From assembly GCF_030817475.1 (NCBI RefSeq), contig NZ_JAUSZJ010000002.1, forward strand, positions 3,516,626-3,548,625: 32,000 nt of DNA, given 5' to 3'. Positions 3,775 to 28,511 of this stretch are shown one piece after another. The translations under genes were made by a program, and so were the position numbers. The DNA comes from Streptomyces sp. V2I9 (GTDB lineage Bacteria; Actinomycetota; Actinomycetes; Streptomycetales; Streptomycetaceae). Each line of letters starts with the position of its first letter. Position 1 is the first letter of the stretch. The notes under the pieces are model-generated. The model was not told where the DNA came from, did not search any database, and saw nothing but the letters and a program-made list of their open reading frames with translations.

Positions 3775-3840
3775 TCCTCTGTGTCCCGGCGCAACGAACC
3801 GTGGTGAAGGGCCAACGGTTCCTGCGGCCGACTGTCGCCC

Positions 3841-5211
3841 CTACGGGGCGATGTTCTGGTTCACGTGGAAGAGGTTTCCGGGGTCGTAGTCCCTCTTGAC
3901 CTCGACGAGGCGTTCGTAGTTGCCCTGGTAGTTGGCCCTGATGCGGTCCTGGTCGTCCTCGGACATGAAGTTGATGTACCCGCCTTCTTCCGCGTGCGGT
4001 GCGGTGGCCTGGTAGTAGTCCCGCACCCAGGCGATGTTGGCCTCGTTGTCGGCAGGGTCCGGCCACATGCCCGCGATGACGGTGGCGAAGTTGGCGTCAC
4101 GGTAGGCGAAGGCCGTGTCCTCCGGTGCCACGCGATGGCAGGCGCCGTTGACCGGATAGATGTGCACCGTCGAGTTCATGGCGGGCAGCCGGGCCGCGTG
4201 ATCGAGGTGTGCCGTGATCGCCGCATCACTGAGCTCCGTCACGAAGTTGGCCTTCCAGTAGTGCTGCAGGCCAGGCGGTACCAGCGCGTCGAACGCGCTG
4301 TTGAGAGCGGGATACGGCAGGGGGCCGACGTGCTCGGCGACCACCGGTGCGATATCCCGGAACCGCTGGACGGCGCGCTCTCCCTCGTCCATGGGTCCGG
4401 ACCAGCACGCGACGATGAGGATGAAGGTGTCGCCGTGCCGGTCCTCCGGGATGAACGGCAGTGGCGGAGCGATCTGGAAGGCGGGGAAGCCGCCGAGCTC
4501 CTCGGGGGCGTCGGCGATGAACTCGCGGAACGCGCGCAGAACCGTGCCCGCATCCTCCAACTCGTACAGGATGGGCCCGCCGTAGATGTTCTCGACCGGA
4601 CTGAGCCGGAACTCGGACGACGTCACCGCGCCGAAGTTGCCGCCGCCACCGCGGATGGCCCAGAACAGGTCTTCGTGTTCGTGCTCGCTCGCCACGAGCA
4701 GCCTGCCGTCCGCAGTCACCACATCGGCCGAGACCAGGTTGTCGCAGCTCAGCCCGAGGCTGCGGGCAAGGTACCCGATCCCTCCACCGAGGGTGAGCCC
4801 CGCGACGCCGGTGGTGGAGATGATCCCGCCCGTTGTGGCCAGACCGAACGTGTGCGTCGCCGCGTCGAAGTCGCCCCAGGTCGCTCCGCCGTCCACCCGC
4901 GCGGTCCGCCGCCGGGGATCGACCCGGACGCCTCTCATGCCCGACAGATCGGCCACAACACCGTCGTCGCAGGTCCCGAAGCCGGGCACGCTGTGCCCAC
5001 CACCACGCACCGCGAGGTCCAGCTCATTCCCGCGTGCGAAGTCGACCACAGCCATCACATCGCCCGCATGCGCACACTGCACGACGGCAGCCGGGTACCG
5101 GTCGATCATGCCGTTGTAGACCTTGCGCGCCTCGTCGTAGCCGTCGCAGTCACGCGTGATCACCGGCCCCCGTACACGGTCCCGCAGCTGGTTGATCGAT
5201 GAGATGTTCAT
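3841..5211 (-). CDS. FAD-linked oxidase (PCMH-type FAD-binding domain plus BBE-like C-terminus)
   Basis: Motifs RGGGHS, GGGIGYL, LFWAIRGGGGNFG and the C-terminal YINF...NYERL..VK..YDP.N.F..NQNI. AAGGAG sits 8 nt upstream of ATG 5211, so this start is preferred over GTG 5220. Confidence 0.9.
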   Translation of the reverse strand: MNISSINQLRDRVRGPVITRDCDGYDEARKVYNGMIDRYPAAVVQCAHAGDVMAVVDFARGNELDLAVRGGGHSVPGFGTCDDGVVADLSGMRGVRVDPRRRTARVDGGATWGDFDAATHTFGLATTGGIISTTGVAGLTLGGGIGYLARSLGLSCDNLVSADVVTADGRLLVASEHEHEDLFWAIRGGGGNFGAVTSSEFRLSPVENIYGGPILYELEDAGTVLRAFREFIADAPEELGGFPAFQIAPPLPFIPEDRHGDTFILIVACWSGPMDEGERAVQRFRDIAPVVAEHVGPLPYPALNSAFDALVPPGLQHYWKANFVTELSDAAITAHLDHAARLPAMNSTVHIYPVNGACHRVAPEDTAFAYRDANFATVIAGMWPDPADNEANIAWVRDYYQATAPHAEEGGYINFMSEDDQDRIRANYQGNYERLVEVKRDYDPGNLFHVNQNIAP

Positions 5212-5469: not shown

Positions 5470-5824
5470 ACAGGGCGTCGGCCGGTCGGTGGCGGTTGTA
5501 GTGGAGGCCCGATTCCGGGTCGGAGTACCGGCCGGGGAAGCGCAGGGGGGTGTACGCGCCGGCGTCGCGGTCCCACGACGTGGCTCCCCACAGGACGGAT
5601 CGGGTGCGCCGCCCGGTCTCGTCGTCGGCGCGACCAGTGCCTGGTCGCGCCGAGGGAGTCCGAGTACCGGTGACGCGGCCGCCCGTCGCCGGCCGGACGT
5701 CGTAGGCGAACGTGGACGACAGATAGCCGTCCGGGCCGACCGTGCGGACCACGCGGCCGGCACCGTCATACACATAGCGGAACGTTGGGGTCGTTACCGT
5801 CCACGAGGTGATCCGGTCGTCCGG
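5470..5824 (-). pseudogene. Decayed RHS tail (YD repeats plus core end), truncated after HYN.H
   Basis: Minus-strand translation gives DRITSWTVTTPTFRYVYDGAGRVVRTVGPDGY...WGATSWDRDAGAYTPLRFPGRYSDPESGLHYNRHR. At least one frameshift is needed (DQALVAPT in another frame). There is no DPxGL end and no toxin domain. Confidence 0.65.
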
Positions 5825-5871
5825 ACGGCGGGAAGGGTGTTGAGGGCGTTTTCCCCCGGTGTCCCACCTCA

Positions 5872-6190
5872 GCTGCACACTGACCGGCTCGGCGTTGAGG
5901 TGGAGATGGTCCGCCCCCGTGCCACTCGCCGTCCCCCTCGATGGGGACGTCGGCATTGACGGCGGCGGCATCCGGCACGATCCCCCTCTGACGGAAACAG
6001 CATCGACCCGTCCGGGTGGGCCACGTTCACCGCGGCTCCGGCCCCGTCCACCACAGCCCCGCACCTCGGCGAACGGTGACAACGCCGCCTCCCCGGCGAA
6101 CCTGCACGCCCACCGCACCCCGCCGAACTCGGCGGTCCATCACCCCTTACGGTCGTACGGCACGAGCACCAGGGCCCGCCGCAGAGCCCC
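5872..6190 (-). pseudogene. Decayed sseB-like gene (from about codon 20 onward) plus the first ~18 codons of the WXG-like gene
   Basis: Homologous to 16650..17075. ALRRALVLVPYDRKG*WTAEFGGVRWACRF carries an in-frame TGA. VNVAHPDGSMLFP and VPDAAAVNADVPIEG lie in other frames. It then continues as SGTGADHLHLNAEPVSVQL, matching the MSGTGAEDLNVDPVSVQQ start of 16054..16707. Confidence 0.65.
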
Positions 6191-6205
6191 CGCTGGGGTC
6201 CGTCC

Positions 6206-6364
6206 TCACAGCGATCGTGCCGAAAACAGCAACGACGGCAGGCTGACCGCTGCTTCGTAGGAAGGGGCGGTCTTGTCGCATCCGGTTGCGATGCCGCGGA
6301 TGGCTTTGAGCCGGGTGAAGCAGCGTCCGGCGGTGTTGCGGCGGTGGTAGGTGTCGCGGTCGAA
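6206..6364 (-). pseudogene. C-terminal remnant of an IS5-family transposase
   Basis: FDRDTYHRRNTAGRCFTRLKAIRGIATGCDKTAPSYEAAVSLPSLL matches the conserved Y..RN.VERCF..LK..RGIATRYDK....Y tail of IS5-family DDE transposases. No N-terminal part is present. Confidence 0.6.
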
Positions 6365-6981
6365 GCCTGGCGGTCGGCCGACACCGGGACCGTTCCCTCC
6401 CCGCTCCCGTACTACCCCCACCACCTTCTCGAATCGCCTCATCCGCAAGCCGGTGAGTGTCTCCACCCACACGACTCAGCCGGCAACGCCCCCCATAGAA
6501 GAGAAGTGCCCTGACTCAGGCGTTCCGCACCAACCTTGAGAGGCTGTCCCTCTGACTTCACAGCGATCGAGCGACGTGCGAGGGTGGCCGCCGTGCAGCA
6601 GCTTGGTCACTGGAGGTCTGCGCGGAGATGTCAGTAGCGGTTGACCATGAGGCTGTCAGGGAATTATGGCGTCCCATCTCGCATTCTGCGCTGGCAGTTG
6701 ACGGCGAGCGGAACTGACGTGAGGGGCGCAACCTCATGACCTCTCCGCAGCGACTGCCGGCGACTCCCTGCCTCGTGCTCGGGGCAGAGCCTGGCTTGTT
6801 CTGGGGCTGGCTCCCCTCTCCGTACCGGCATGGGGGTCGGGCCCGGCTTGAATCCAACCTGTGTCGATGTCGCTCCGCTGGAATAGATGACCGTGCCCCT
6901 TTCCGCGAAATTTGAGGCGCGGCCACCCGTGCTCGCGCGACCTTTTGGTGATCTACTTAAGACTTGGATTGCGAGGAATGC

Positions 6982-7476
6982 ATGATGATTTGGTCGGCAG
7001 GGCAGAGGTTCAGGGAGGGGGATGTCTGCAAAGGGGTGGTATCTGATGTCTTCGACTTCGGCGTTTTCGTAGATCTTGGGGGTTGTGCGGGATTCGTCAA
7101 CCCCTCCGAGATCACATGGATGAAGTACGCGGAAATCACCGAAGTGATGTGCGAAGGGCGGGAGGTGAGTTCCCTGGTCATCGGTCACGCCCCTGCGCGA
7201 GAGCAAGTCCTCCTCTCCATCAAGGGCCTGGAGGAGGACCCCATGAAGAAATTTGCGCGCGAGCATTTTGGGGCATCTTTTACTGGGAGTGTCGTGATGG
7301 TGACGCCTGTCGGTCTTCTCGTTTCATTGCCGGGTGGAGTGAGCGGACTGCTCCCTGGGTCTGCAATGGTCGATATTGCTGATGAATATCGAGTGGGCGA
7401 TGAGATCTGTGTCGAGGTTGCCAGAATTAATCTTCATGAACGTCAGATCACACTCTCGCTGAGAGCTCGTACGTGA
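6982..7476 (+). CDS. Small protein with two S1-like RNA-binding (OB-fold) domains
   Basis: GDVCKGVVSDVFDFGVFVDLGGCAGFVNPSEI and FTGSVVMVTPVGLLVSLPGGVSGLLPGS...VGDEICVEVARINLHERQITLSLR fit the S1 motif twice. ATG 6982/6985 follows GAGGAA. Local G+C is about 50-58% by hand count, well below the surroundings. Confidence 0.6.
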   Translation: MMIWSAGQRFREGDVCKGVVSDVFDFGVFVDLGGCAGFVNPSEITWMKYAEITEVMCEGREVSSLVIGHAPAREQVLLSIKGLEEDPMKKFAREHFGASFTGSVVMVTPVGLLVSLPGGVSGLLPGSAMVDIADEYRVGDEICVEVARINLHERQITLSLRART

Positions 7477-7666
7477 GCTACCGTTTTGACGGGCTGCCAA
7501 CACCATGCAACCGGCCAGTGCGGCGCACCTGACCCGCAGGACTGTCGGCGTACGTGGGAACGCGGCCCTGGCAAGGTTTACGTGAAGCTAAGGGCTGTCC
7601 CGTAAATGATCTTCGCCGAGGCGGTGACATGAACGCCCGTGGGGTGGTTTGTCCGTTCAGCCGTTA

Positions 7667-8065
7667 CAGAGCCCCTGGATTACCGACCTTGGCCCGCCGC
7701 TCGGCGATTCGATCGCCCACCCGGTCGCCCACCGGAAGCCCTCCCTGTACGCGAGTCATCACCCTTCACTTCCGCGCACGCCAGGCCACCCCGCCCAGCT
7801 GCAACCACGTGGTTCTTGCCACCACCCAGCGCCCACACCACAGGCCGGCACTGAACACAAATAGGGCCCCAGTCGCTGACCAGTGCCTTCATGGAGGGAG
7901 CGGGGACGAGAATCGAACTCGCGCTCTGAGCTTGGGAATCAACGGTGCTTGGGCTGCCAGAGATGCTCTGACTTGGACTTTTGAATGTCGCCGGTAGATT
8001 GCCTCGGTCTTTGGGAGCCGCATCTGACCGCTGTTGTCCGCGCTGCTGGGCACGGATGGGGCACG
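7667..8065 (-). repeat. Module repeat copy C: arm, tRNA-Gly 3' fragment, degenerate hairpin, promoter region and first ~22 codons of the sseB-like gene
   Basis: Collinear with 16993..17482 and 10006..10485 at an estimated 70% identity by eye. The tRNA-Gly(CCC) 3' fragment at 7898..7938 has a 1-nt deletion. The sseB-like start reads VGDRVGDRIAERRAKVGNPGAL and then TAA at the breakpoint. Confidence 0.8.
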
Positions 8066-8311
8066 GCTGTTGAGGTCTGCTCGGCCCGATGCAAAGCTTG
8101 CCTGCACGTCGAGCCCGTAGGCGGCGCACTTCGTGTCGCCGATCCAGTCGGTTTTGCCCTGTCGCGCCTGCAAGTCGCTCAGGCCGAAGGGGGCACCGGC
8201 ATGGCGCCGTCCGAGCTCCTTGGGTTCGGCTGGTTCCAGCGGTTCTCGGCGGACTGTACGTCGAGGTGTCGGGGCGAACAGCGAGTTAGGTAGACCCACG
8301 TCCTGCCCCAT

Positions 8312-9067
8312 TCACCAGTTCTCGTAGTCCTCGATCAAGCGAGCCACAAGCTGGTGGAGCGCTGCTGCCCTGTTCAGGTCCTCCTTCTGTTCGCGCAGGG
8401 CCCGCTCAGTCGCCCGCAGCCGATGCCAGGCGTCCGGTTCCTTGTCCATCACGTCGTCGACCAGCGGGCGGGTGATCAGCGCGAGGCACTCGGCCAGTCG
8501 CCGCCTGGTGGATGGCGCCGGCGGCGCCAGGTCGGCGACGGCGTACCCGGTCGTCAGGTATCGGACAGGGTCGGCCAGGCTCCAGCCGACGACTGCCCCG
8601 GTCTGGACCAGGAGCGCCAAGCCTGGGGCGATACCGATCCGGGCATCCAGCGGAGTGTCGAGGATCGCGAGATTCCGCAGGCAGGCCAGTTCCGTCGCTT
8701 CGGGGTCGCAGCACAGCACCGCCGTCTGCGCGAGGGCAAAGTCGTTTGCCTCCTCCGCGCGGAGCCCGCCCCGGACGGCCCGGGGCTCGGTGGGAAGGCG
8801 GACTCCGGCCTCTGCCGGGGCGGATACGGCGGGCAGGTGGAGGCCCACGCCGACCAGCTCGCGGCTGCCGTTGTCGAACAGAAGGTCGTCGTTCTCCGAC
8901 CCCAGCCACTCCTGGCTTCCGAAGGTGCCGGGCAGCAGCCGCTCGAATTCCGCCCGGTCGGTGAACTCACCGACGACCAACTGGGGGATGTCGAGGGCGA
9001 GGCGCGGGGTGGACGTGAGCGGAGTATCCGTCACCACGGCGCGAAGGGTGTTCAGGGCGATTTCCAC
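8312..9067 (-). CDS. Putative cognate immunity protein of the orphan toxin cassette
   Basis: 251-aa ORF starting at GTG 9067, 12 nt after the orphan toxin stop, with GAGGTGGG upstream. No recognisable family. The role is inferred from position only. Confidence 0.55.
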   Translation of the reverse strand: MEIALNTLRAVVTDTPLTSTPRLALDIPQLVVGEFTDRAEFERLLPGTFGSQEWLGSENDDLLFDNGSRELVGVGLHLPAVSAPAEAGVRLPTEPRAVRGGLRAEEANDFALAQTAVLCCDPEATELACLRNLAILDTPLDARIGIAPGLALLVQTGAVVGWSLADPVRYLTTGYAVADLAPPAPSTRRRLAECLALITRPLVDDVMDKEPDAWHRLRATERALREQKEDLNRAAALHQLVARLIEDYENW

Positions 9068-9079
9068 AGGTGTCCCACC

Positions 9080-10005
9080 TCACCGGATCTGATCGGCGGG
9101 CGCCAGCGTGCCGCCTCGGCTGTCCGGAATGTTGCCGTTCACAATATCGTCATGGGTCACCGGCAGGCCGGGGTCGTCAGGCGATCCGCCGAATGCCTTG
9201 GCGCCGCTTTCCCCTCGGGTCCCCGAAGGACCGTAAGCGGTGATGACATCGCCCGCGCCGGCGCCCGGCCCCTTGGTGATCACGACGTCTTCTCCTTGCC
9301 GGAAGGTGAGGTTTCCTCGCTGTCCCTGGGAGTGGTAGACCGCGTCGGGGTTCTTGAGGATCTCCAGAACCCGGTCGTCGCTGAACTGGTGCCGTGTGTC
9401 GGCGTGGTAGTTGCCGGACTTCCTCATCTTCCCTTCCTGGGCCCGCTCGATCACCTGGTCGGCAACCTTCCGGGCCCTCTCCTTGGGACACTTGGGCATG
9501 AGGCCCAGCGGGTCGCACCAGGTGAAGGGGTTGTCGACGTAGGCGACCGGGTTCGGCCCTGGCGCCAGACCGAGTGGGTCGGGAGAGACGTAGCGGCCTG
9601 CTGCCGGATCGTAGTGGCGGAAGAGGTTGTAGTGGAGGCCGGTCTCCGGGTCGTAGTACTGGCCGGGAAAGCGCAGAGGGGTGTAGGCCGTACTCGTCCG
9701 TTCCCAGGCAGTGGTGCCCCAGATAGTGGTGCGGGTGCGCCAAGCTATATCGCCCGATTCGTCGACGAGTTCGGTGGGGGCACCGACGAGGTCGGTGGCG
9801 ATGGCGTAGAACCGCCGGTCGATCTCGTCCTGACGGGTGTCGGCGGTCAGGATGCGCTCGGTCTGGGCGAGAGGGACTCCGGCGCTGTGATCCCATGTGA
9901 TGACAACGGTGTTCGGCAGAGCGGACTCTCGCATGGTCTGTTCGCAGAGGGTGAGGCCGTCCCAGGCGAATCTGACCTCTTCGACGACGGTTCCACCGTC
10001 GGATG
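9080..10005 (-). pseudogene. Orphan RHS C-terminal cassette: last RHS repeats, core and an alternative toxin domain (DUF4258/BrnT-like?), lacking its own N-terminus and start
   Basis: EEVRFAWDGLTLCEQ...YTPLRFPGQYYDPETGLHYN...NPFTWCDPLGL is 106/160 identical (manual alignment) to the end of the main RHS protein. An unrelated 139-aa tail follows, with NYHADTRHQFSDDRVLEILKNPDAVY...GEDVVITKG...GDVITAYG. The only upstream start in frame is an arbitrary GTG at 10075 inside out-of-frame sseB-like sequence. Confidence 0.75.
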
Positions 10006-10485
10006 CCACCGAACTCAGCGGTCCACAACCCGCCACGGTCGTACGGCACGAGCACGAGAGTCCGCCGCAGCTCACCTACCAGGGCTTCCGGGTCACCGAC
10101 CCCGGCCCGCCGCTCGGCTATCCGATCCACCAGCGCTGACCCGTCACCCACTGGTGCCTCCCCCATACGCGAGTCGTCGCCCTTCACTTCCGCACACGCT
10201 AGGACACCACGCCCACCCGTAACCACGTGGTTCCAGCCGTCCCCACAGCCCCCACACCACGGACCGCCGCCGAATACGAAGAAGGCCCCGGTCGGAGACC
10301 GGGGCCTTCTGAAAGAGCGGGTGACGAGAATCGAAATCGCGCTCTGAGCTTGGGAATCAGCGGCTCTTACGCTGCTGGAGGGGCTCTGACCTGCGCTTTC
10401 GGATTGGTCAGGTGGATGGCTCCCGGTCTCTGGGAACCATATCTGACCGCTGTTGTCCGCTTCGCTGGGCACGGATGGGGCACGA
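10006..10485 (-). repeat. Module repeat copy B: 129-nt arm, tRNA-Gly 3' fragment, hairpin, promoter region and first ~50 codons of the sseB-like gene
   Basis: Arm 10357..10485 differs from 17354..17482 at 3 of 129 nt. tRNA fragment 10315..10356 matches 41/42. The sseB-like 5' part 10006..10151 differs at about 18 of 146 nt from copy A. Confidence 0.9.
10281..10309 (-). terminator. Hairpin downstream of the tRNA-Gly fragment (copy B)
   Basis: GAAGGCCCCGGTC-gga-GACCGGGGCCTTC, a 13-bp perfect stem. Confidence 0.55.
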
Positions 10486-10594
10486 CCCGGAGAGATCGGA
10501 CGCCACGTCCGGAGGTGCCCGGCTCTCGCCTGCGGGGAGCCGGCCCCGCCACCAGTCTCCACGGCGGCCGGTCCTCAGAGGTCTCTGACGCTGG

Positions 10595-11383
10595 TCATTC
10601 CGCTTTGCGCAGCAGCTCGATGACGGCGTTCTTCAATTCGTCGTCCGACAGGTCGTCCGGCTCCTTGAACTGCGGGTCGATGGAGTAGTCCTCCAGCAGC
10701 GAGAAGACACGATCGAGGAGCGTCTCCAAGGGATCGCGGACCCGCTCGCCCCGCTGCTGCGAACGACGACGTGCGTCGAGCCAACCGACGGCGAATTCCG
10801 CCCCCGTGCAGTGTCCGGCTGCTAGATCTCTCATCAGTGCCAGCTGCTGGCCCGTGGCGGTGGCCTCCGGAACGTCCCTCGGGTACTTCCAGGCGATGTG
10901 TCCGGGAGGAAACGACCGCGCGGTCGACTCCAGAGCGGGCCATTTCCGTGCTGCTGCCCGAGCGTAACGGGCGAAGCGAGCACGCGCCTGGTCCACTCCC
11001 TCTGGCGCTGCTCCCGCGAGGAACGCCGACGTGCCGGCGACCAAGGCGTAGCCCGGTCCGGGAAAGAGGACCGCGCCCTCCAGGTTCGCAGCGACGAGCA
11101 GAAGATCCGCAGGCAGCGAGACAAGGCCCGGATCGGCCGGCGGCAGGCTGTCCGCAGTGGCGATTGCCCCGACGGAGGGGTGAATCACCAGGACGGCGTC
11201 GGCGCCTGCAGTCCGGCATCCCTCGGTGATACGCCTGACCAGAGAGTCGTCCGTGTGACTGCCTGCCGGCACCGGGGCGACCTTCTTCTCTCCTGCCGCG
11301 AGCCATTGTCCGCTGAAGGCGCCCTGCCTGTCGAGAACAGCCATGGCGTTTCCAGCTCCGCCCTCGTTCGACCCTGTCACCAT
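10595..11383 (-). CDS. Immunity protein of the main RHS toxin: unknown N-terminal domain fused to a colicin-immunity-like C-terminal domain
   Basis: Its ATG overlaps the RHS stop (ATGGTGA at 11377..11383). The C-terminal ~85 aa (LALMRDLAAGHCTGAEFAVGWLDARRR...LLDRVFSLLEDYSIDPQFKEPDDLSDDELKNAVIELL) fits the pattern I recall for the bacterial self-protective colicin-like immunity family. Confidence 0.75.
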   Translation of the reverse strand: MVTGSNEGGAGNAMAVLDRQGAFSGQWLAAGEKKVAPVPAGSHTDDSLVRRITEGCRTAGADAVLVIHPSVGAIATADSLPPADPGLVSLPADLLLVAANLEGAVLFPGPGYALVAGTSAFLAGAAPEGVDQARARFARYARAAARKWPALESTARSFPPGHIAWKYPRDVPEATATGQQLALMRDLAAGHCTGAEFAVGWLDARRRSQQRGERVRDPLETLLDRVFSLLEDYSIDPQFKEPDDLSDDELKNAVIELLRKAE

Positions 11384-14300
11384 AGGAACCCTTTATCGAT
11401 GATGCTCTGAAATTGCTTGTCGCCCAGTTTATAGCCTGACCAGAATTTTCCGGTGTCCGCGTGTAGCATGACCATCTTCTGAGTGGTCGGGTCAATGAAG
11501 CCGATCGCTTGTCCTTGGCCTCTGTAGTCGAATCGATAAATCTTCGTGTCATCCGCTTTTATGTGAGCCCGCATGCTATCTTCGAACCTTTGGAGATTCG
11601 CCTTTTTGAGATTACCCGGCTCGTCCAGGAAATCTCCCGCGTGTGCGTGGAATTTCTTGCTCATCACACTCTGGCTGGAGAAGTCGGCTTTTTCTTCCCA
11701 CCCCCCTCGGGGGCAGGGGCCGAGCCCCAGCGGATCGGACCATGTGTGGGGGTTGTGGACGTAGGTACGGGGGTTGGGTGCAGGTGAGAGGCCGAGGGGA
11801 TCGGCTGTGAGGTAACGGGCGGTCTGCGGATCGTAGTGCCGGTGGTGGTTGTAGTGCAGGCCGCTCTCCGGGTCGTAGTACTGACCGGGAAAGCGGAGCG
11901 GCGTGTAGGTCGTGCTGTCTCTCGCCCATGTCGTACTGCCCCAGAGAGCCGCGCGGGACTGCCATCCCACGTTCCCGGTCTCATCGATGAGTTCGGTGGG
12001 GGTGCCGATCAGGTCGGTGGCGATCGCGAAGAATCGCTCGTCGATCACGTCCTGTCGCGTGTTCGAGGACAGGATGCGTTCGGTCTGGGCGATCGGGCGA
12101 ATACCGTCGTGATCCCAGGTGAGCGTGACTGGACGAGGAAGCTCCGAAGACAACGTGGTCTGCTCGCAGAGCGTGGTGCCATCCCAGGAGAAACGGACCT
12201 CCTCGCCCGTGGGGTCACCCATGTCGGAAAGCCGGACTTTGCTTGTGCGGCGGCCAAGGGGGTCATAGCGGTAGCGCCACGCGATGCCGTCCGGGGTGGT
12301 CACCGCCGTCAGGCGGTCCTCGACATCCCACGTGTACCGCCAGGTGTCGGGCTTGCGGGACAGCCGTGTCTTCCGGCGGACGGTGACCCGGCCCAGAGCA
12401 TCGTGCTCGAACCGGAGCGCGCCGGCGCGAATGATCTCCGTGCCGGTGTAGGAACGAGGTCCCGTAGCCTCCTGGCCGGGATGGGAGGCAGTCCAGGACG
12501 CCGAAGTCTGATTTCCGTCGGCGTCGTAGGAGTAGCTCTCGGCCCATCGGTCCGCTGTGACGGACACGACCCGGCCGACAGCGTCCAGGGTGAACCGCGA
12601 CATGCCGCGCAGTGTGTCGTCGACCGCTGTGAGCCGGTCGTCGGCGTCGTAGGTGTAGGACCGGCGGTTCACTGTGTCTTCGCCACTGAAGATGTGCTGT
12701 GTGACCAGCCTGCCAGCGCCGTCCCACGCCGAGTTGAAGGTCAGCTCGGGGCCGAAAGCGCGCGTCAGTTCGCGGCCCGCCAGGTCGTGGGTGAACGCGA
12801 TGGTCCGGTTGCCGCTGATCAGCTCGGTGAGCCGGTCGGAGGCGTCGTAGGCGTACCTGGTGCGCTGACCGGTGGGTGTCACGCGCTGGGTCCGGCGGCC
12901 CAGCGCATCGTAGGTATAGGTGGTGACTCGGCCGTCGGCTATCTCTACTTTCACACGGCCGATTCGGTTGTACTGATAGAGCAGTTCGCTTTCCGGCCCC
13001 ACAGCATGGAGCAGGCGCCCCGCTCGGTCGTAGGAGAAGGTCGTCACCGTGCCCGCCGCGTCTTTGCGGGTAACTCGGCCGCACGCGTCACGCTCGTACG
13101 TGATGGACTCACCCAGCGAGTTGGTGCGCGTGACTACCTGTCCGGCAGCGTCCGACTCGTAGCTGAGCGTGCGGCCGTCGAAGTCCGTCTCCGAAACGAG
13201 CCGTCCCGCAGGGTCGCGTGTGTACGACCACACCGAGCCCAGCGTGTTCCGGACCTGCGTGAGGTTGAGGTCGCCATCGTGCTGGAACTCGAAACTCGCT
13301 CCTCCGGGTGACCTGCTCGCCGAGAGAAGATCGAAGTGCGTGTACTCGAAGTGGGACTCCCGTCCGAGCGCGTCGACGTGACGCGTACAGTTCCCTTCGC
13401 CGTCGTAGGTCCAGGACTCCTTGGAACCGTCAGGGGTGGTACGACTGGCCAGCTCTCCGTCGGCTGACCATTCCAGGACCGTGGTCGCACCCAGGGCGTC
13501 GGTTATCCGGACAGGGCGACCAAGGAGGTCCCGCTGGTAACGGGTGGTGGCACCGACGGCGTCCGTGACCGCCACAGGCTGCCCTGACGCATCGCACCGT
13601 ATCGAGGTGACCGCCCCGAGCGGGTTGGTCGTCCCGGTCAGGAAACCGGCAGCGTCGTAGCTGTAGCGCGTTGTGTGCCCCATGGGATCGGTGACGGCGG
13701 TCCGGTTACCACGGTCGTCGAACTCCTGCAGCCAACGAGCACCATCTTGAGCCGTGTAGTGAGTTGGCAGGCCGAGCCGGTCGAAGACGATGCGCTCCTC
13801 ACTGCCATCGGGGTGGAGGACCGCGGTCTGTCTCCCCTCCTCGTCGTACTGGTGAGTTGTGGCGCGACCGAGTGGGTCGGTGAGCGTGAGCAGCCTTCCG
13901 CGGGTGTCGTGGGTGAAGCGAGTGGTATGGCCGAGCGGGTCCGTCGTGGAGAGGATGCGGCTGCCTCTACCGACGAGATAGCGGGTGGTGTGACCGCGCG
14001 CGGTCGTCAGAGAGGTCGTGCGGTGGCCGGTCCCCGTGTCCGGATCGCTGTAGGCGAGGGTCATCTGCAGGTGGCCGCCCTCACCTCCCTGCGCGATCAC
14101 GCGGTCGTTGTTGTCGTAGGTGTAGTCGTAGCGGTGGTTGTTGGAGTCGATCCAGGCGGTGATCCGCCCTCGATCGTCGTAGATGAAGGTGAGTGTGGCG
14201 CCGGACGGTTTCGTGACGGTGGTGAGATCGCCGCCCGTGTAGCCGTAGGACCTGATGGGGGTGGCCGCGCCTGTCTCGTCTCTCACACTCAGCACGGTGA

Positions 14301-16050
14301 TCCCCGTTTCGGTGCTGGTGAGCGAGAGGCGGTACCCGGCGGAGTGGGCGAGTTCCTGGGGTGTCCCGTCCTCGGTGCGGTCGATGCTGATGGCGTTGTC
14401 GTTGCGGTCGCTGATCTGGACGAGCCATGCGGTTCCGTCCTGGCCGGGTTCCGTTCCATGAGGAGCGGAGAAGTACTTGGTCAGTCGAGTGTCGGAGTCG
14501 GTGAGGGTGTAGTCGCCGGATTCATCACGGCTCAGGGAATTGCGTGAGGTGCCGGATTCCGGGTGGGTGGGCAACCCGGGCAAGGGGTGGGGGTAAGTGA
14601 TGAGCAGGCCGTCGGCGGTGACGTGGATGACGCCGTGGGCGTCGATCTCCAGGCGTTCGTCGACGGTGGAGGACCAGGAGGGTCCGAAGAACCGGCCGGC
14701 TGTGTACCCGGACTCGAAGCGACGCGTGAATGTCAGGGGCAGTACGCCGGGGAGCCTCACGTCGGTCTGAGGAAGGAACATGCGACCGGAGGCGAGGTCG
14801 ACCGGGTCGGTTCCCCCGCTGGTGCGCTCGCTGTCGGGGCGGTTGTGGGTTCCTTCGGGTGCGGCGCGCTCCAGCTTGCGGGCGTCGGAGGCGAGGTCGG
14901 CGGCCTCCTTCACCACTCGGGCTCCCTTGACGCCGGCCCCCGCGCCGCCGGTCGCGGCGGTGAGGGCGAGGTCCGGCAGGAGCCGGCCGAACCCCTCGGC
15001 GGGGTCCTTCATGAAGTCGGTGACCATCTGCTTGCCGGTGCCCCAGGGGTCGTTGGCGACCCGGACGAGGCCGGCGGCGGTGTTGTTGAGCGCGAGTCCG
15101 TACTCGGCGGGGTGGGTGATGTTGTACGGGTCGGTCGGGTTGACGCTCCGCGCGAAGTTCAGGATGCCTGCCGCGCCCTTGACGACGCCGCCCGCGATAT
15201 GAGTCTGGATCACCTGGTACTCGGCGAGCCCGTCCAAAGCCTGCTCGGCGTACCGGGGCTTCGGCGGCGCGGAGTCCCGGGCCGCGGTGACGGCCTTGCG
15301 TGCGATGTCGGCGGCGGTGTTGCGCTGCTTGCGCGCCTCCGCGAGCAGCGACTGCGCCTCCTCCATCCGCCCGATGCCCGGGTCCGTGAACGCGCCGGGC
15401 TTGGGCGGCAGCGAGGAGGGGTCACGGTCGTCGGCGGGCTTGGCGTTGTACGCGTCGACGGCCTTCTTGTACGTGTCCGCCTTGGCGTTGTACGCGTCCC
15501 TGGCCTCCTCCGACGCCTTGGTTCCCGCCTTCCACTTGTCGATCGCGGTCTGCGCCTGCCCCTGCGCCCACTCCACGGTCCCGGCGAAGGAGTCGAGCGC
15601 GCCGGCGGCCTTCTCGAAGGCGTCGGCTGCCTTGAACCACTTGGGCGGCTCGATGGACACGGAGTCCCGGAAGGCGTCGGCGGCCTGCCCCTTGAGCGCG
15701 GAGGAGTCGACCCCCTTGAGTCCACCGCCGACCTGGTCGAACGACCCCTGCAACTTACGGAGATGGGTCGCGGTGGACCGGATCGTGGACGGGCTGCCGT
15801 AGATGAGCTTGGTCTTGTCCTCGGTCTGCCCGAGGTCCATCTCGTCGACCTCGGCGCCCATCCGGTTCGCCACCGAGCGGGACTTCTCCCGGACCCAGTC
15901 CGCCCCGGACTCCCAGCCGACGTCCTCGAGCCGGTCGCCGGTCCAGTTCCCGGCGTCCTCGACCCGGTCACCCGCCCACTCGACACCGTCCTCGACCGCG
16001 TCCTCGACGACATCGGGCGTGATGTCACTGACGAAATCCCCGAACCCCAT
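11377..16050 (-). CDS. RHS-repeat polymorphic toxin with a T7SS-signal-type N-terminal domain and a colicin D-like C-terminal toxin domain
   Basis: 1557 aa. The N-terminal helical region reads IYGSPSTIRSTATHLRKL...GQAADAFRD...KWFKAADAFEKAAGALDSFAGTVEWAQGQA. The DUF6531-like segment is DPVDLASGRMFLPQTDVRLPGVLPL. Dozens of YD repeats follow (Y.YD..GR). The core ends YTPLRFPGQYYDPESGLHYNHHRHYDP...TWSDPLGL, followed by a 113-aa variable tip. Confidence 0.95.
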   Translation of the reverse strand: MGFGDFVSDITPDVVEDAVEDGVEWAGDRVEDAGNWTGDRLEDVGWESGADWVREKSRSVANRMGAEVDEMDLGQTEDKTKLIYGSPSTIRSTATHLRKLQGSFDQVGGGLKGVDSSALKGQAADAFRDSVSIEPPKWFKAADAFEKAAGALDSFAGTVEWAQGQAQTAIDKWKAGTKASEEARDAYNAKADTYKKAVDAYNAKPADDRDPSSLPPKPGAFTDPGIGRMEEAQSLLAEARKQRNTAADIARKAVTAARDSAPPKPRYAEQALDGLAEYQVIQTHIAGGVVKGAAGILNFARSVNPTDPYNITHPAEYGLALNNTAAGLVRVANDPWGTGKQMVTDFMKDPAEGFGRLLPDLALTAATGGAGAGVKGARVVKEAADLASDARKLERAAPEGTHNRPDSERTSGGTDPVDLASGRMFLPQTDVRLPGVLPLTFTRRFESGYTAGRFFGPSWSSTVDERLEIDAHGVIHVTADGLLITYPHPLPGLPTHPESGTSRNSLSRDESGDYTLTDSDTRLTKYFSAPHGTEPGQDGTAWLVQISDRNDNAISIDRTEDGTPQELAHSAGYRLSLTSTETGITVLSVRDETGAATPIRSYGYTGGDLTTVTKPSGATLTFIYDDRGRITAWIDSNNHRYDYTYDNNDRVIAQGGEGGHLQMTLAYSDPDTGTGHRTTSLTTARGHTTRYLVGRGSRILSTTDPLGHTTRFTHDTRGRLLTLTDPLGRATTHQYDEEGRQTAVLHPDGSEERIVFDRLGLPTHYTAQDGARWLQEFDDRGNRTAVTDPMGHTTRYSYDAAGFLTGTTNPLGAVTSIRCDASGQPVAVTDAVGATTRYQRDLLGRPVRITDALGATTVLEWSADGELASRTTPDGSKESWTYDGEGNCTRHVDALGRESHFEYTHFDLLSASRSPGGASFEFQHDGDLNLTQVRNTLGSVWSYTRDPAGRLVSETDFDGRTLSYESDAAGQVVTRTNSLGESITYERDACGRVTRKDAAGTVTTFSYDRAGRLLHAVGPESELLYQYNRIGRVKVEIADGRVTTYTYDALGRRTQRVTPTGQRTRYAYDASDRLTELISGNRTIAFTHDLAGRELTRAFGPELTFNSAWDGAGRLVTQHIFSGEDTVNRRSYTYDADDRLTAVDDTLRGMSRFTLDAVGRVVSVTADRWAESYSYDADGNQTSASWTASHPGQEATGPRSYTGTEIIRAGALRFEHDALGRVTVRRKTRLSRKPDTWRYTWDVEDRLTAVTTPDGIAWRYRYDPLGRRTSKVRLSDMGDPTGEEVRFSWDGTTLCEQTTLSSELPRPVTLTWDHDGIRPIAQTERILSSNTRQDVIDERFFAIATDLIGTPTELIDETGNVGWQSRAALWGSTTWARDSTTYTPLRFPGQYYDPESGLHYNHHRHYDPQTARYLTADPLGLSPAPNPRTYVHNPHTWSDPLGLGPCPRGGWEEKADFSSQSVMSKKFHAHAGDFLDEPGNLKKANLQRFEDSMRAHIKADDTKIYRFDYRGQGQAIGFIDPTTQKMVMLHADTGKFWSGYKLGDKQFQSIIDKGFLW
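11380..11717 (-). other. Variable C-terminal toxin domain (CT1) of the RHS protein, a low-GC module
   Basis: Hand count gives 159 G+C in 320 nt over 11381..11700 (about 50%) versus 45/60 in 11701..11760. The peptide is SKKFHAHAGDFLDEPGN...YRFDYRGQGQAIGFIDPTTQKMVMLHADTGKFWSGYKL. Confidence 0.7.
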
Positions 16051-16053
16051 GGC

Positions 16054-16707
16054 CTAGTTCCCCCCGCCGCCCTGCTGCTCCTTCTGCCGCGCCCGCTCCT
16101 CGGGCGATGGCCCGAACATGTCGTCCACGGACCGGTCGAACGTCTGCTGATCCACACCGAACAGCTCTTTCAGCTGCTCCGCCTGTCGACCGCCGTTCCC
16201 CTCGGTGACGAGCGCCCGTCCGGTGTCCTTCCAGGTCTGCCCGGCCTCGTCCGCCGCCCGCTCGAACGACTCGCGGCTGTAGTCGGGGCTCAGATAGTCC
16301 GGGGTGAACACATCGCCCCACCCCTGCTTGACGATCTCGTCCTCGGAAGCATGCGGATTCCCCACGCCCGCGTTGACGACGATCTTCAACGTGCCCTGGA
16401 CGTACTGGTCCTCCTCCCACACGATCCCCGCCGCCAGCCCGAGCTTCGCCGCGATCGCGTTGGCGTCCTGGACGAGCGCGCGGACGCCCCACTCCCACCG
16501 CTCGCAGAAGTCCTCGAAGTCCACGGACAGCCCGTGATGTCCGGCCTCCATCCCGGTCATCGACAGCTCGGACAGCCCTTTGCCCAGCACGGCCCCCGTG
16601 CCGTCCCCGATCTCCTTCAACTCGGCCACGGCCCCGCGCAGCCCGCTGGTAATCTGCTGAACGCTGACCGGATCGACGTTGAGGTCCTCGGCCCCCGTAC
16701 CGCTCAC
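16054..16707 (-). CDS. 217-aa helical WXG100-like/T7SS-partner-like protein of unknown function
   Basis: GTG start overlaps the upstream stop (GTGA at 16704..16707), and its stop lies 3 nt before the RHS ATG. The helical N-terminal half has FEDFCERWEWGVRALVQDANAIAAKLG. The C-terminal half is charged and Gly-rich. Confidence 0.75.
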   Translation of the reverse strand: MSGTGAEDLNVDPVSVQQITSGLRGAVAELKEIGDGTGAVLGKGLSELSMTGMEAGHHGLSVDFEDFCERWEWGVRALVQDANAIAAKLGLAAGIVWEEDQYVQGTLKIVVNAGVGNPHASEDEIVKQGWGDVFTPDYLSPDYSRESFERAADEAGQTWKDTGRALVTEGNGGRQAEQLKELFGVDQQTFDRSVDDMFGPSPEERARQKEQQGGGGN

Positions 16708-17138
16708 AGGTCCCGCCCCTCGCTCGGTACGTCCGCATCGACGGCGACGGCATCCGGCACGATCCCCACCACTGGCGGGAACAGCATCGACCCGTCCGGA
16801 TCAGCCACATTCACCGCGACCCCGGCCGGCACCCCCATCGCCGGAATGACCTCGTCCAGCAACCGGGCCCCCCGGAACGCGGCGTACTCCCAGCTCCTGG
16901 AGCCGGCCCCGGCCATCCCTTCCAGCACGGCCCGCTCCTCGGCGAACCGGGCCAGAGCGGCCTCATCGGTGAACCCGCACACCCACCGCACCCCACCGAA
17001 CTCGGCGGTCCACAACCCACCCCGGTCGTACGGCACGAGCACCAACGACCGCCGCAGCTCACCCACCAGAGCCCCCGGATCACCGACCCCGGACCGCCGC
17101 TCGGCTATCCGATCCGCCAGAGCTACCCCGTCAGCCAT
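16704..17138 (-). CDS. SseB-family-like protein, first gene of the RHS toxin operon
   Basis: ORF 16704..17273 trimmed to ATG 17138. The pattern LRRSLVLVPYDRGGLWTAEFGGVRWVCGFTDEAALARFAE...GVAVNVADPDGSMLFPP fits the SseB N-terminal domain as I remember it. Confidence 0.75.
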   Translation of the reverse strand: MADGVALADRIAERRSGVGDPGALVGELRRSLVLVPYDRGGLWTAEFGGVRWVCGFTDEAALARFAEERAVLEGMAGAGSRSWEYAAFRGARLLDEVIPAMGVPAGVAVNVADPDGSMLFPPVVGIVPDAVAVDADVPSEGRDL

Positions 17139-17143
17139 CGAAT

Positions 17144-17158
17144 CCCCCCCCCCCCCCC
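17144..17158 (-). repeat. Homopolymer C15 (G15 on the coding strand) in the ribosome-binding region of the sseB-like gene
   Basis: Counted directly: 15 consecutive C at 17144..17158, ending 5 nt upstream of ATG 17138. Copy B has GGGGGAGG at the equivalent place. Confidence 0.95.
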
Positions 17159-17191
17159 GGATACGCGTGCTGTCGCCCTTCACTCCTGCAC

Positions 17192-17235
17192 ACGCTAGGG
17201 CACCACGCACGACGGCAACCACGCGGTTCCAGCCG
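17192..17235 (-). promoter_or_regulatory. Putative promoter of the RHS toxin operon
   Basis: Minus strand reads TTGCCG-N15-TAGCGT about 55 nt upstream of the ATG. TAGCGT is kept in copy B (10196..10201) and is degenerate in copy C. The spacing is sub-optimal and this is pattern-based only. Confidence 0.2.
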
Positions 17236-17276
17236 TCCCCACAGCCTCCACACCTCGGCCGGGCCCCGAACACAAT

Positions 17277-17305
17277 GAAGGCCCTGGTCTCCGACCAGGG
17301 CCTTC
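17277..17305 (-). terminator. Hairpin downstream of the tRNA-Gly fragment (copy A)
   Basis: GAAGGCCCTGGTC-tcc-GACCAGGGCCTTC, a 13-bp perfect stem. Confidence 0.55.
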
Positions 17306-17522
17306 ATCAAAGAGCGGGTGACGAGAATCGAACTCGCGCTCTGAGCTTGGGAATCAGCGGCTCTTACGCTGCTGGAGGGGCTCTGACCTGCGCTTTCGGA
17401 TTGGTCAGGTGGATGGCTCCCGGTCTCTGAGAACCATATCTGACCGCTGTTGTCCGCTCTGCTGGGCACGGATGGGGCACGAGAGCTGGCAGTGCGACGC
17501 GTGATCCGGGCGGGCCGGCTGG

Positions 17523-17924
17523 TCAGAGGGAGATGATGCGCACTTGGTTGCCGCAGAGCTTGTTCATGTCGTCGCTGTCGGACGTCAGCAGGGCGACGGG
17601 TTTCGGCTGGCGGAGGGCGACCTCGGCGACCGTGGCGTCGAGGGCGTACTTGTGCCTGTGCAGTCCGGCACCTTTGAGGAGTACAGCCGCCGCTTTCGCC
17701 GACTGTTCGGTGACCGGCTCCACCTTGACGCGGGAGAGGACCCAGTTCAGGGCGAGGCGCGTTGGTACGGGAGTGGCTGACTTCCACAATGGTGGTGGCC
17801 CGATGACCAGGTTGGCTCCCATGTCATGGAAGACTTGAAGCATCGCGAGGAGCTTGCGGTCCTGCGCGATCCAGGCGGAGAGCCCTTCCGAGTCCAGGAC
17901 GACGGTTTCGATGCGCTCGCTCAC
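17523..17924 (-). CDS. vapC: PIN-domain toxin (VapC family)
   Basis: VVLDSEGLSAW near the N-terminus and LLTSDSDDMNKLCG near the C-terminus. GTG start overlaps the antitoxin stop (GTGA at 17921..17924). Confidence 0.75.
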   Translation of the reverse strand: MSERIETVVLDSEGLSAWIAQDRKLLAMLQVFHDMGANLVIGPPPLWKSATPVPTRLALNWVLSRVKVEPVTEQSAKAAAVLLKGAGLHRHKYALDATVAEVALRQPKPVALLTSDSDDMNKLCGNQVRIISL

Positions 17925-18169: not shown

Positions 18170-18356
18170 CAAACCAATCATATTGGAGTATGCGAGGGTC
18201 GGCTGAGTCACAGGCCCCTGCCTTGATGGTTGCGACCGCATGCGTCGGGTGATGACAGAGCAGCCGCTCTCCGGCCGTCCACTGGGGGGCAAGGATTTGG
18301 ACCGACGCCGCTGGAGGGCAAGCGAAAGGCCCCGGTCTCTGACCAGGGCCTTCATT

Positions 18357-19241
18357 GAGCCCTTTCCAACCTGACGGTGTGCGCCGGTGGTTGGCGGGAT
18401 ATGCGAAGCGGTGAAGCTCCTGGTAGACGGGTTCACGACCAAGATCACCCGTGCCGACCAGGAGCTTCGCGTGCTTGTCTACCCATCGGCGATCGATCTG
18501 TCCAGTGGCCATCTGCGCCACCTCGCCGGGCACCTGGCTGCGCGTCGTCGTGAGATCGGCACCCGGTGGCGGCGCATCACGCCGGGCCGCCAGGCCCTCC
18601 TGGTTCTGGCGCATCTGCGCTGCGGTGACACCTACGCCCAGCTTGCCGCCGGGTTCGGCATCGGGGTCGCGACGGTCTACCGCTATGTCCGCGAGGCGAT
18701 AGAAGTCCTGGCCACGCTCGCTCCCAGCCTGGCCCAGGTCATGCGGACCGCGAGCCGCCCGGCCTTTGTGATCCTCGACGGCACCCTGCTGCCGATCGAC
18801 CGAATCGCCGCCGACACCCCGTACTACTCCGGCAAACACAAACGTCACGGCATGAACGTCCAGGTTCTCACCGACCCGTTCGGCCGCCTGCTGTGGGCTT
18901 CGCCCGCGCTGCCCGGCTCCACCCACGACCTGACTGCGGCCCGCACTCACGGGATCGTCGAAGCTCTCGCCGCTGCCGAACTCAAGTGCTGGGCGGACAA
19001 GGCATACCAAGGTGCCGGCTGCCCGGTCCGGGTGCCCTTCCGCGGCCGTCGCCTCAAGCGGTGGCAGCGCCGGCACAACAGTACGCACGCCAAGATCCGC
19101 TGCCTCGGCGAGCAGGCCATGGCCGCCCTGAAGGGCTGGCGACTGCTACGGAAGCTCCGCTGCAGCACGAACCGGATCACCGACGTGGTGAAGGCCGTCC
19201 TCGTCCTTCACCACGCGACAGCGTGAGGTTGGAAAACCCTC
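18357..19241 (+). mobile_element. Small (about 0.89 kb) IS element with a single DDE_Tnp_4-type transposase gene
   Basis: Imperfect terminal inverted repeats GAGCCCTTTCCAACCTG (18357..18373) and GAGGTTGGAAAACCCTC (19225..19241) match at 13/17. The transposase stop lies inside the right repeat. No clear target duplication was seen. Confidence 0.65.
18471..19226 (+). CDS. Transposase, PIF/Harbinger-like DDE (DDE_Tnp_4) with an N-terminal HTH
   Basis: LAHLRCGDTYAQLAAGFGIGVATVYRY (HTH), then VILDGTLLPIDR...YSGKHKRHGMNVQVL...GSTHDLTAAR...WADKAYQG. The start is set to GTG 18471 (VLVYPSAIDLS), typical for this family. The track ORF starts at 18387. Confidence 0.8.
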   Translation: MLVYPSAIDLSSGHLRHLAGHLAARRREIGTRWRRITPGRQALLVLAHLRCGDTYAQLAAGFGIGVATVYRYVREAIEVLATLAPSLAQVMRTASRPAFVILDGTLLPIDRIAADTPYYSGKHKRHGMNVQVLTDPFGRLLWASPALPGSTHDLTAARTHGIVEALAAAELKCWADKAYQGAGCPVRVPFRGRRLKRWQRRHNSTHAKIRCLGEQAMAALKGWRLLRKLRCSTNRITDVVKAVLVLHHATA

Positions 19242-26257: not shown

Positions 26258-26331
26258 TGGAGCGGGTGACGAGAATCGAACTCGCGCTCTGAGCTTGGGA
26301 AGCTCATGTTCTACCATTAAACTACACCCGC
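26258..26331 (-). tRNA. tRNA-Gly (anticodon CCC), CCA encoded
   Basis: Reverse complement is GCGGGTG TA GTTT AATGGTA GAAC A TGAGC TTCCCAA GCTCA GAGC GCGAG TTCGATT CTCGT CACCCGC T CCA. This folds as a full cloverleaf of 74 nt with discriminator U. Confidence 0.95.
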
Positions 26332-26741: not shown

Positions 26742-27137
26742 CGGCATCCGGGGCGGAGCCGAAGACCGGTAGCCGTAGCGGCATCCAGGTGGGAGCCGAC
26801 GAGCAGGAGCGGTAGCCGGGCACGAGTCGGGCGGTAGCCGTGTGCGGGCCGTGGCGTTCGGGTAGCCGTCGCCACGGCCTCTCGTCACAGCAGGCCTGCG
26901 CGAGCGGCCCCGACCGAAGCCTGCCTACCGAAGTCGGCCCCGCGAAACCCCTGCCCGCCGGGACCGGCCCCGCGCAGCCCCCGCGCGCCGGAGCCGGCTC
27001 CGCCGAAGTCGGCCCCCCCATGGGCCGCCCCGCCCAGCCAGGCCGCCGAAGGCAAACCCCAGGCCCCCAAACCCCCGGCCCAACCCCCCCCGAACCCCGG
27101 CCCCCAAACCCCCGGCCCCCGAACCCCCGGTCCCCAA

Positions 27138-28340: not shown

Positions 28341-28348
28341 GGCCGTGG

Positions 28349-28504: not shown

Positions 28505-28511
28505 CCCCGCC

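Follow-up and report, generated by a model that had tools for sequence, protein, structure and literature searches.

The window, a stretch of 32,000 nucleotides (nt) from Streptomyces sp. V2I9, carries a series of RHS toxin genes. The DNA is of high G+C content, and its nearest relatives belong to the S. griseus/anulatus/californicus group. This account concerns the segment 10485..8066, which lies directly downstream of a complete RHS operon and its immunity gene (the main operon) and is followed by a third, decayed module. The genes of all three are encoded on the minus strand. The segment joins the beginning of one gene to the end of another, and carries a tip of the polymorphic-toxin type (CT2) and the gene of a putative immunity protein (Imm2). 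It is composed as follows.

10276..10485, minus strand: repeat U_B, with an arm (10485..10357), a tRNA fragment (10356..10315, one mismatch), and a hairpin with T-rich tail (10311..10282)
10152..10275, minus strand: copy of the operon leader from the hairpin to the first start codon, with a palindrome AACCACGTGGTT, a conserved TAGCGT and the Shine-Dalgarno sequence GGGGGAGG; presumed promoter region
10001..10151, minus strand: first 50 codons of a second sseB-like gene (sseB'), start GTG 10151
10002..10000, minus strand: presumed deletion joint, a 3-nt CCG microhomology common to the sseB-like and RHS parents, the parental sequences being taken from the sister strains L002, L003, L005 and L006
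9500..10000, minus strand: RHS core remnant, the last 167 codons to the PxxxxDPLGL cleavage motif
9499..9083, stop 9082..9080, minus strand: CT2, a 139-aa polymorphic-toxin C-terminal domain after DPLGL, of a family without annotation
9067..8312, minus strand: Imm2, a 251-aa putative cognate immunity protein, start GTG 9067, 12 nt past the CT2 stop
7857..8065, minus strand: repeat U_C, with arm, tRNA fragment (7938..7897) and hairpin; it closes this module and opens the third

The upstream part of the segment is a copy of the region preceding the main operon: 10485..10006 aligns with 17482..16993 at 86.7% identity over 490 nt (E=1e-170). The orphan RHS tail (9983..9500) matches the main RHS core (12205..11722) at 73% nucleotide identity (E=5e-74). 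In protein, 107 of 161 residues are identical from EEVRF to DPLGL, in close agreement with the 106/160 counted in the preliminary description of this DNA, and the likeness stops after DPLGL. The Pfam RHS core profile PF03527 matches the orphan open reading frame (ORF) with 30.5 bits (cut-off 27.9). The remnant 9500..10000 corresponds to the main RHS protein from residue ~1277 onward, and begins at the equivalent of codon ~1276 in the 1582-aa RHS protein of L002. The different 139-aa tip and the 251-aa ORF 12 nt beyond it are likewise as first described. Imm2 has its own ribosome-binding site, GAGGTGGG, which overlaps the CT2 stop codon.

The orphan tail and CT2 together form 306 codons uninterrupted by a stop or frameshift. 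Their frame lies one base off from that of sseB', which provides the only conserved start. Read onward in the wrong frame, sseB' passes through the RHS tail and into CT2 before it stops at 9177 (the ORF spans 9177..10562). Upstream of the joint the frame of the tail contains a single start, GTG 10075, preceded at 10 nt by a weak GGAAG; the tail has no credible start, as had been noted. The anatomy is that of an orphan Rhs module, also in keeping with the earlier description: it stands 3' of the main RHS gene and its immunity gene (Imm1), retains a core remnant with an unrelated tip, lacks both the N-terminal delivery region and a proper start, and adjoins an immunity gene.

The family to which CT2 belongs was surveyed by an exhaustive profile search, which gave 163 cluster representatives (about 160 clusters at 50% identity), and by a genome scan with one genome per species, which gave 172 CT2 loci; 80 Streptomyces loci were fetched and counted. 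CT2 stands at the C-terminus of many proteins of 1000-1700 aa whose N-terminal parts are RHS, PT-HINT or eCIS-core. In 59 of the 80 loci it ends an open frame that has an RHS tail and measures 1300 aa or more; 58 of those 59 have a T7SS_signal N-terminus and 50 have the sseB-like gene and gene2 upstream. The scaffold is not RHS in 10/80. An Imm2 homologue follows CT2 at a distance of 11-169 nt in every one of the 80 loci. The proposal that CT2 is always an orphan, which came from a word-indexed search that returned only short ORFs, was overturned by the profile search and genome scan.

Four sister strains have an intact CT2 operon: L002 (Streptomyces sp. NPDC088744), L003 (NPDC001985), L005 (NPDC006320) and L006 (S. 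stephensoniae). Each encodes a 1582-aa RHS protein in which an open frame of 1445 aa precedes the tip, and CT2 is 93-99% identical in amino acids. The parental module reads, in order, U repeat or tRNA, leader, sseB-like gene, gene2, RHS, Imm2, and U or tRNA fragment. From the joint onward the window matches L002 closely (10002..8098 against 9498..11402, 94.9% over 1905 nt). The orphan tail is 94-95% identical in nucleotides to L002 and L005, and CT2 differs by one residue from L002 and L003. Relative to L002, the ratio of non-synonymous to synonymous change (dN/dS) is 0.09 in the tail and 0.02 in CT2, where synonymous differences (pS) amount to 0.13-0.16; Imm2 has a ratio of 0.32. Since sister strains carry the operon intact, the segment in the window is probably a deletion derivative of such an operon. 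The preliminary description had preferred a special orphan to a simply broken full-length second RHS gene; the four intact operons indicate the broken gene.

Compared with L002, ~4.8 kb are absent, from codon 50 of the sseB-like gene to RHS codon ~1276. Lost with them are gene2, the secretion domain and nearly all of the RHS shell. The joint had been placed at 10005/10006 and called out of frame: the one-base offset stands, and the position moves by 3-6 nt to the CCG at 10002..10000. A chimeric mis-join at repeats might be suspected in so repeat-rich a region, where the Logan contigs break within U (L083 starts at 10366 and L085 ends at 10403). The joint at 10000..10002, however, is internal to L083 (SRR35247537), an independently assembled contig that is 100% identical to window 10366..7912 (2455 nt). 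It lies off any repeat boundary, and both flanks are unique there. Because L083 reproduces the joint exactly, an assembly error is scarcely credible and was rejected. The joint sequence occurs in no other fetched genome, only in the same strain's own reads.

The segment 10485..8066 is thus best explained as the remnant of a complete second RHS operon of the T7SS-signal type that has undergone an internal deletion of ~4.8 kb and kept Imm2 as an orphan, an explanation held with good though not full confidence. On this reading the relic arose by ordinary decay and is no toxin reserve equipped with a purpose-built promoter. The proposed sequence of events is as follows. (i) The second RHS operon would have been one of at least three U-bounded modules lined up downstream of a tRNA-Gly(CCC) gene. 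(ii) An illegitimate deletion at the 3-nt CCG would have joined sseB-like codon 50 to RHS codon ~1276. (iii) Left with neither shell, export domain nor conserved in-frame start, CT2 could presumably no longer be made, released or delivered as a weapon. (iv) Imm2 would still be transcribed from the old operon promoter; it lies ~1.1 kb past the retained leader, and likewise past the U hairpin. (v) Imm2 would then serve as orphan immunity against the RHS-CT2 toxins of sister strains with the full operon, and it probably still works in this predicted role. (vi) The CT2 frame would be intact through the recency of the deletion, not through upkeep as a reserve. The deletion looks recent because the 306 codons contain no stop or frameshift and their differences from L002 are mostly synonymous.

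Some observations count against this account. The low dN/dS could equally reflect ongoing selection on CT2. The two parts of the relic differ in their closeness to the modules of L002, L005 and L006: the 5' part (U_B, leader, sseB') is 82-85% identical, the 3' part 94-95%. A scan for a sigma-70 consensus promoter found none in either leader copy, and it is by its position that the leader is presumed to act as a promoter. The activities ascribed to toxin and immunity protein, and the RNase assignment discussed below, are tentatively suggested by synteny and by fold matches short of E<0.001. The discordance between the 5' and 3' parts is not decisive, because the 5' parts of full CT2 modules are themselves only 72-92% identical to one another.

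The same discordance bears on how the relic came to lie where it does. A ColD-type module may have arrived together with the next U, its leader and 50 sseB-like codons, in a single homology-facilitated illegitimate recombination. The left-hand crossover would have been homologous, in the 5' region; the right-hand CCG join would have fallen inside a resident RHS-CT2 gene, displacing the resident tip and immunity gene downstream. The uneven similarity of the relic halves to CT2 modules (82-85% against 94-95%) mildly favours such an event, and the main module fits the import of a foreign block of shell, tip and immunity gene: its 5' genes are 84-90% identical to L002, its RHS body ~72% in nucleotides. 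Yet across CT2 modules as a whole the 3' blocks are in general better conserved than the 5' regions anyway, and a donor-like genome, in which a ColD module would precede a further one, was not found; exact copies of Imm1 came only from reads of this strain. A one-step origin is therefore possible but somewhat unlikely, and present-day function would be the same as under the deletion account. The data also fit two steps, in which a ColD-type module inserted beside a resident CT2 module, for instance by recombination in U and leader, and the 4.8-kb deletion followed.

Other relics of CT2 modules show what becomes of such remnants. In L082 (GCA_044742175.1) and L084, sequence ~20 nt past the U hairpin is joined straight to CT2 codon 48, a truncation that takes away the conserved Tyr-His region of CT2. 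Imm2 there is nevertheless identical to that of the window at 768 of 768 nt. In S. californicus L001, CT2 is truncated by an insertion sequence (IS) fragment and Imm2 is intact. As all three truncate CT2 and keep Imm2, immunity appears to outlast the toxin; the recurring trend is that RHS body and toxin are lost and the immunity gene remains. The window itself holds a second decay event, a fusion of gene2 codon ~18 to late RHS repeats in the third module, which also supports the decay reading. L006 has a further orphan (tail, a different tip and a 143-aa ORF) between U copies, fused to a fragment of a DUF1932-family gene. The short-frame CT2 loci L004, L013, L018, L057, L064 and L066 have no sseB-like or leader fragment upstream. 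A recurrent pattern of promoter capture was accordingly not borne out, either in those loci or in the L006 orphan tail. As a separate observation, L082 9713-11182 and window 9355-7885 share a CT2'-Imm2-U block that is 99-100% identical, with flanks of 91-96%, which hints at recent transfer, exchange or a sweep of the immunity block between the two strains.

The preliminary description proposed that the orphan is a maintained reserve: its own promoter would keep Imm2 expressed, and ~490 bp of core homology would allow CT2 to be swapped onto the main RHS gene. Its anatomy does resemble the orphan rhs-CT/rhsI modules of enterobacteria (PMC3150448, PMC3967940), the CT2 frame is intact with low dN/dS, and joining the orphan tail to codon ~1277 of the main RHS gene would by its construction preserve the frame. 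The homology, however, is of poor quality as a recombination substrate: over ~490 nt the orphan tail and main core agree at 73.7% of positions, and no exact run exceeds 19 nt. On either side of the main module, the leader repeats have a 96-nt exact run in common. Because this run so exceeds that in the core, the favoured recombination would delete the whole main operon and swap no tip; such a deletion would leave no functional RHS gene. Comparison among strains points the same way. Across CT2-type modules, the stretch from RHS codon ~520 through Imm2 is 95-98% identical, whereas U, leader, sseB-like gene, gene2 and RHS N-terminus are 72-92% identical. The step in identity falls near RHS codon 440-520, away from the core/tip boundary. 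Since shell, tip and immunity gene form one highly similar block, exchange between strains seems to move the whole block, with a crossover, as far as alignments can tell, in the conserved N-terminal RHS region and not at the core/tip boundary. The other mapped relics (L082, L084, L001) have CT2 truncated and Imm2 preserved, and none of the other fetched genomes has the joint. Tip swapping from the orphan tail onto the main RHS gene is unlikely, and upkeep of the segment as a reserve is improbable.

The repeat that bounds these modules, U, derives in part from tRNA-Gly(CCC). Each copy is ~210 bp and consists of a conserved arm of ~130 nt, the last 42 nt of tRNA-Gly(CCC), and a G+C-rich hairpin resembling that which follows the real gene. 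An intact tRNA-Gly(CCC) gene lies at 26258..26331 in the window. The window contains three copies of U, in which the tRNA part runs from the anticodon loop to the 3' end (17353..17312, 10356..10315 and 7938..7897). The first of them is the following.

17272..17482, minus strand: repeat U_A, preceding the main operon

Across 185 nt U_B and U_A agree at 95% of positions, and the U_B hairpin was flagged as terminator-like. All three copies are followed by a leader and the beginning of an sseB-like gene; the third copy of the duplicated segment spans 8065..7667. In an alignment of six leaders from four genomes, the palindrome, TAGCGT and the Shine-Dalgarno sequence are conserved blocks. The earlier claim that the orphan has its own copy of the operon promoter holds in so far as the upstream region is duplicated; the copy belongs to the U-repeat module, and nothing marks it as specially acquired or retained. 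The tRNA fragment with its hairpin, the third copy and the second, older relic had been overlooked. At gathering thresholds Rfam recognized the real tRNA only, and a relaxed search over U_A gave chance-level matches. U_A folds with z = -5, owed mainly to the terminal hairpin. The hairpin loops of U_A (17278-17307) and U_B (10282-10311) are mutually reverse-complementary (GGA against TCC) on near-identical stems, and the hairpin core appears flipped between the two. A hairpin-only copy of the U/tRNA terminator, 93% identical to the U_A hairpin and without a tRNA fragment, lies at 18326-18355, next to an IS5-type DDE transposase gene (18387-19226, plus strand).

The form of U invites another explanation, in which the repeats are attP-like junctions of tandem elements at tRNA-Gly and the 'promoter copy' is simply the left end of a site-specific cassette. 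U is sharply bounded on both sides, and its tRNA part begins at the anticodon loop. In L003 the RHS-CT2 module has an intact tRNA-Gly(CCC) on one side and, on the other, a 45-nt repeat of the 3' end of that tRNA. The U-bounded modules, comprising RHS operons, PIN-type toxin-antitoxin pairs and relics, differ in order among L001, L002, L005, L006, L082 and the window. On the other side, Pfam searches of the window from the tRNA to U_A, covering the 10 largest ORFs there (18.4-25.9 kb), found no integrase; the matches were to a DDE transposase, UDP-glucose dehydrogenase, a helix-turn-helix protein and, weakly, SIR2. The viral contigs searched did not contain the U arm pattern. Homologous recombination between U copies of 80-95% identity would explain the shuffling equally well, and the illegitimate sseB'::RHS joint is left without an explanation. 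Site-specific cassettes thus seem unlikely. The idea in its fuller form makes each U copy an attP-like site for a trans-acting recombinase, by which integrase-less RHS operons, PIN-type toxin-antitoxin pairs and orphan relics are captured, reordered and lost at tRNA-Gly; it is a speculative proposal of similarly low probability. If true, it would give the Streptomyces griseus/anulatus clade an integron-like armoury of interbacterial toxins, the leader after each U being a cassette-borne promoter. Measured against tRNA-linked islands, the locus has an intact tRNA with 3' direct repeats and strain-variable content, and no associated integrase among the ORFs searched in the window.

CT2 and Imm2 are without annotation in the databases searched. 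CT2 had no match in Pfam or NCBIfam at E<=10 and none in PHROGs; Imm2 had none in Pfam, NCBIfam or PHROGs. For both this was so with single sequences and with all members of the alignments. A profile search against PDB sequences yielded nothing meaningful. The AlphaFold2 (AF2) model of CT2 has a predicted local distance difference test score (pLDDT) of 86 and a predicted template modelling score (pTM) of 0.81. It shows N-terminal helices and four strands followed by a conserved Gly-rich C-terminal half (YGPSGxxGxSGA...DPGxPxTH). Further conserved residues are Y31-H32, R67, D71, T87 and Y89. In Foldseek searches no PDB fold matched CT2 at E<0.7. Against BFVD the best-named match was a DUF4258 phage protein (E=0.027, prob 0.96), a weak hit, and a RelE-type repressor stood at rank 10. 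The AF2 model of Imm2 (pLDDT 92) best matched CdiI-EC869 in the PDB, the immunity protein of a BECR-fold tRNase (E=0.012). The order of elements in CT2 agrees with the published description of the BECR RNase fold (PMC3482391), and the conserved His, Arg and Thr are placed in the elements expected. The fold matches of CT2 and Imm2 are two independent, weak hints from models toward BECR/DUF4258, short of establishing DUF4258 membership. The preliminary description had likened the tip to the DUF4258/BrnT type of RelE-fold RNases. Profile hidden Markov models (HMMs) gave this no support, with 0/31 CT2 family members matching DUF4258 at E<=5; what survives of the claim is the BFVD hint.

Sequence comparison supports CT2 as a real polymorphic-toxin tip, carried on RHS, PT-HINT and eCIS-core scaffolds. 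It likewise supports CT2 and Imm2 as a conserved pair, given their adjacency throughout the 80 loci. In a distant, 1500-aa protein from the profile search (P0203), a Pfam Ntox1 domain (1280-1361) stands directly before a CT2-like domain (~1360-1498); CT2-type domains may thus occur in tandem with another toxin domain.

The relic is closest in kind to the orphan rhs-CT/rhsI modules of enterobacteria (Poole et al. 2011, PMC3150448; Koskiniemi et al. 2014, PMC3967940). Like them it lies directly 3' of a full rhs gene and immunity gene and consists of a core fragment with DPxGL, an unrelated tip and a tightly linked immunity gene, with no N-terminal region or proper start. Unlike them, its 5' end is an operon leader with 50 codons of the first gene, brought out of frame by an internal deletion; a full-length parent survives in sister strains, and the core homology is probably too low for recombination to occur readily. 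The setting also differs from the PAAR/type VI secretion systems of enterobacteria, being actinobacterial with a type VII secretion system (T7SS) signal at the N-terminus. As in orphan and poly-immunity loci (Serratia Rhs immunity, PMC10539506; T7SS EsaG arrays, PMC9484751), an immunity gene is present without a usable cognate toxin, and the relatives L082, L084 and L001 show stepwise toxin loss with immunity conserved. In contrast to EsaG-type arrays there is a single immunity copy, and its protective role is predicted. The locus resembles tRNA-linked islands with tandem accretion in its intact tRNA-Gly(CCC) at one end, three 42-nt 3' copies and strain-variable content. It departs from them in having no integrase in the window, repeats of ~210 bp with arm and hairpin, and toxin or toxin-antitoxin modules of 1-7 kb. 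CT2 shares with BECR RNase toxins (Zhang et al. 2012, PMC3482391; CdiA-CT/CdiI EC869, PMC9071432) predicted helices followed by a four-strand meander, with a conserved His close to the N-terminus, an Arg in the second strand and, in the fourth, an invariant Thr. Its Gly-rich C-terminal half has no counterpart in BECR, DUF4258 or BrnT proteins, and no family HMM matches it.

The case allows the origin of an orphan toxin-tip/immunity module in an actinomycete to be followed with both parental sequences in hand: it would have arisen by internal deletion of a tandem operon, not by capture of a loose tip, and afterwards it is the immunity gene, not the toxin, that persists across strains. Current ideas on Rhs evolution stand and are not overturned by these findings. 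Also identified are a widespread, unannotated family of CT2 tips with its immunity family, and a tRNA-Gly-derived repeat that partitions RHS loci into modules. The U repeat and the two unannotated families are more interesting by-products than the relic itself.

The main operon, by comparison, is complete.

10595..17271, minus strand: main module (leader, sseB-like gene, gene2, RHS, Imm1)
17138..16704, minus strand: main sseB-like gene, 144 aa
16707..16054, minus strand: main gene2, 217 aa, without family
16050..11377, minus strand: main RHS, 1557 aa, with T7SS_signal, DUF6531, RHS repeats, RHS core and a Colicin_D tip
11383..10595, minus strand: Imm1, 262-aa immunity candidate

The main sseB-like gene falls below threshold against Pfam PF07179 (E=0.18, 12.4 bits, cut-off 21). 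Among its homologues at ~70% identity, some are named SseB family by NCBI or UniRef and one has PF07179. The SseB label for the first gene of the operon is tolerable, but weak. Just 5' of the operon's first ATG, a run of 15 G (17144-17158) takes the place of the relatives' GGGGGAGG. The run has the same length in the independent Logan contig L085, and any G run at this place in L002, L005 and L006 is shorter than 8. The run of 15 might serve as a slippage-prone switch of the main toxin operon.

The third module has decayed further.

5487..7856, minus strand: third module, with leader, 22 sseB-like codons (to 7667), a 1.47-kb insertion and a later fusion

In its 3' part, the remainder of the sseB-like gene and ~18 codons from the start of gene2 (6184..5869) are fused to late RHS repeats. 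The core tail is broken off after GLHYNRHR (to ~5487), frameshifts are present, and tip and immunity gene are gone. The relic at 5487-6184 is older than the CT2 relic and was formed in the same way, and the locus as a whole is an array of three RHS modules at differing stages of decay, each bounded by U. The insertion (6193-7666) has a lower G+C content (56-60%), and a 9-bp sequence, GGGGCTCTG, is directly duplicated on its two sides (7675-7667 and 6192-6184). A 170-aa ORF on the plus strand (6964-7476) encodes two S1 domains within the insertion; neither a transposase nor terminal inverted repeats were seen in it.

Beyond the RHS genes, a 133-aa ORF (17523-17924, minus strand), PIN-type toxin-like by eye, lies 41 nt upstream of U_A. 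It differs from its relatives in a stretch of ~20 residues resembling a compensated double frameshift. L002 has three copies of this ORF (2723-3124, 3786-4187 and 12151-12552), 93-94% identical and each followed by a U repeat. On the tRNA side of the window, and apparently unrelated, are five tandem copies of a 31-nt repeat (28330-28516) and C-rich repeats of 15/37 nt (26928-27161).

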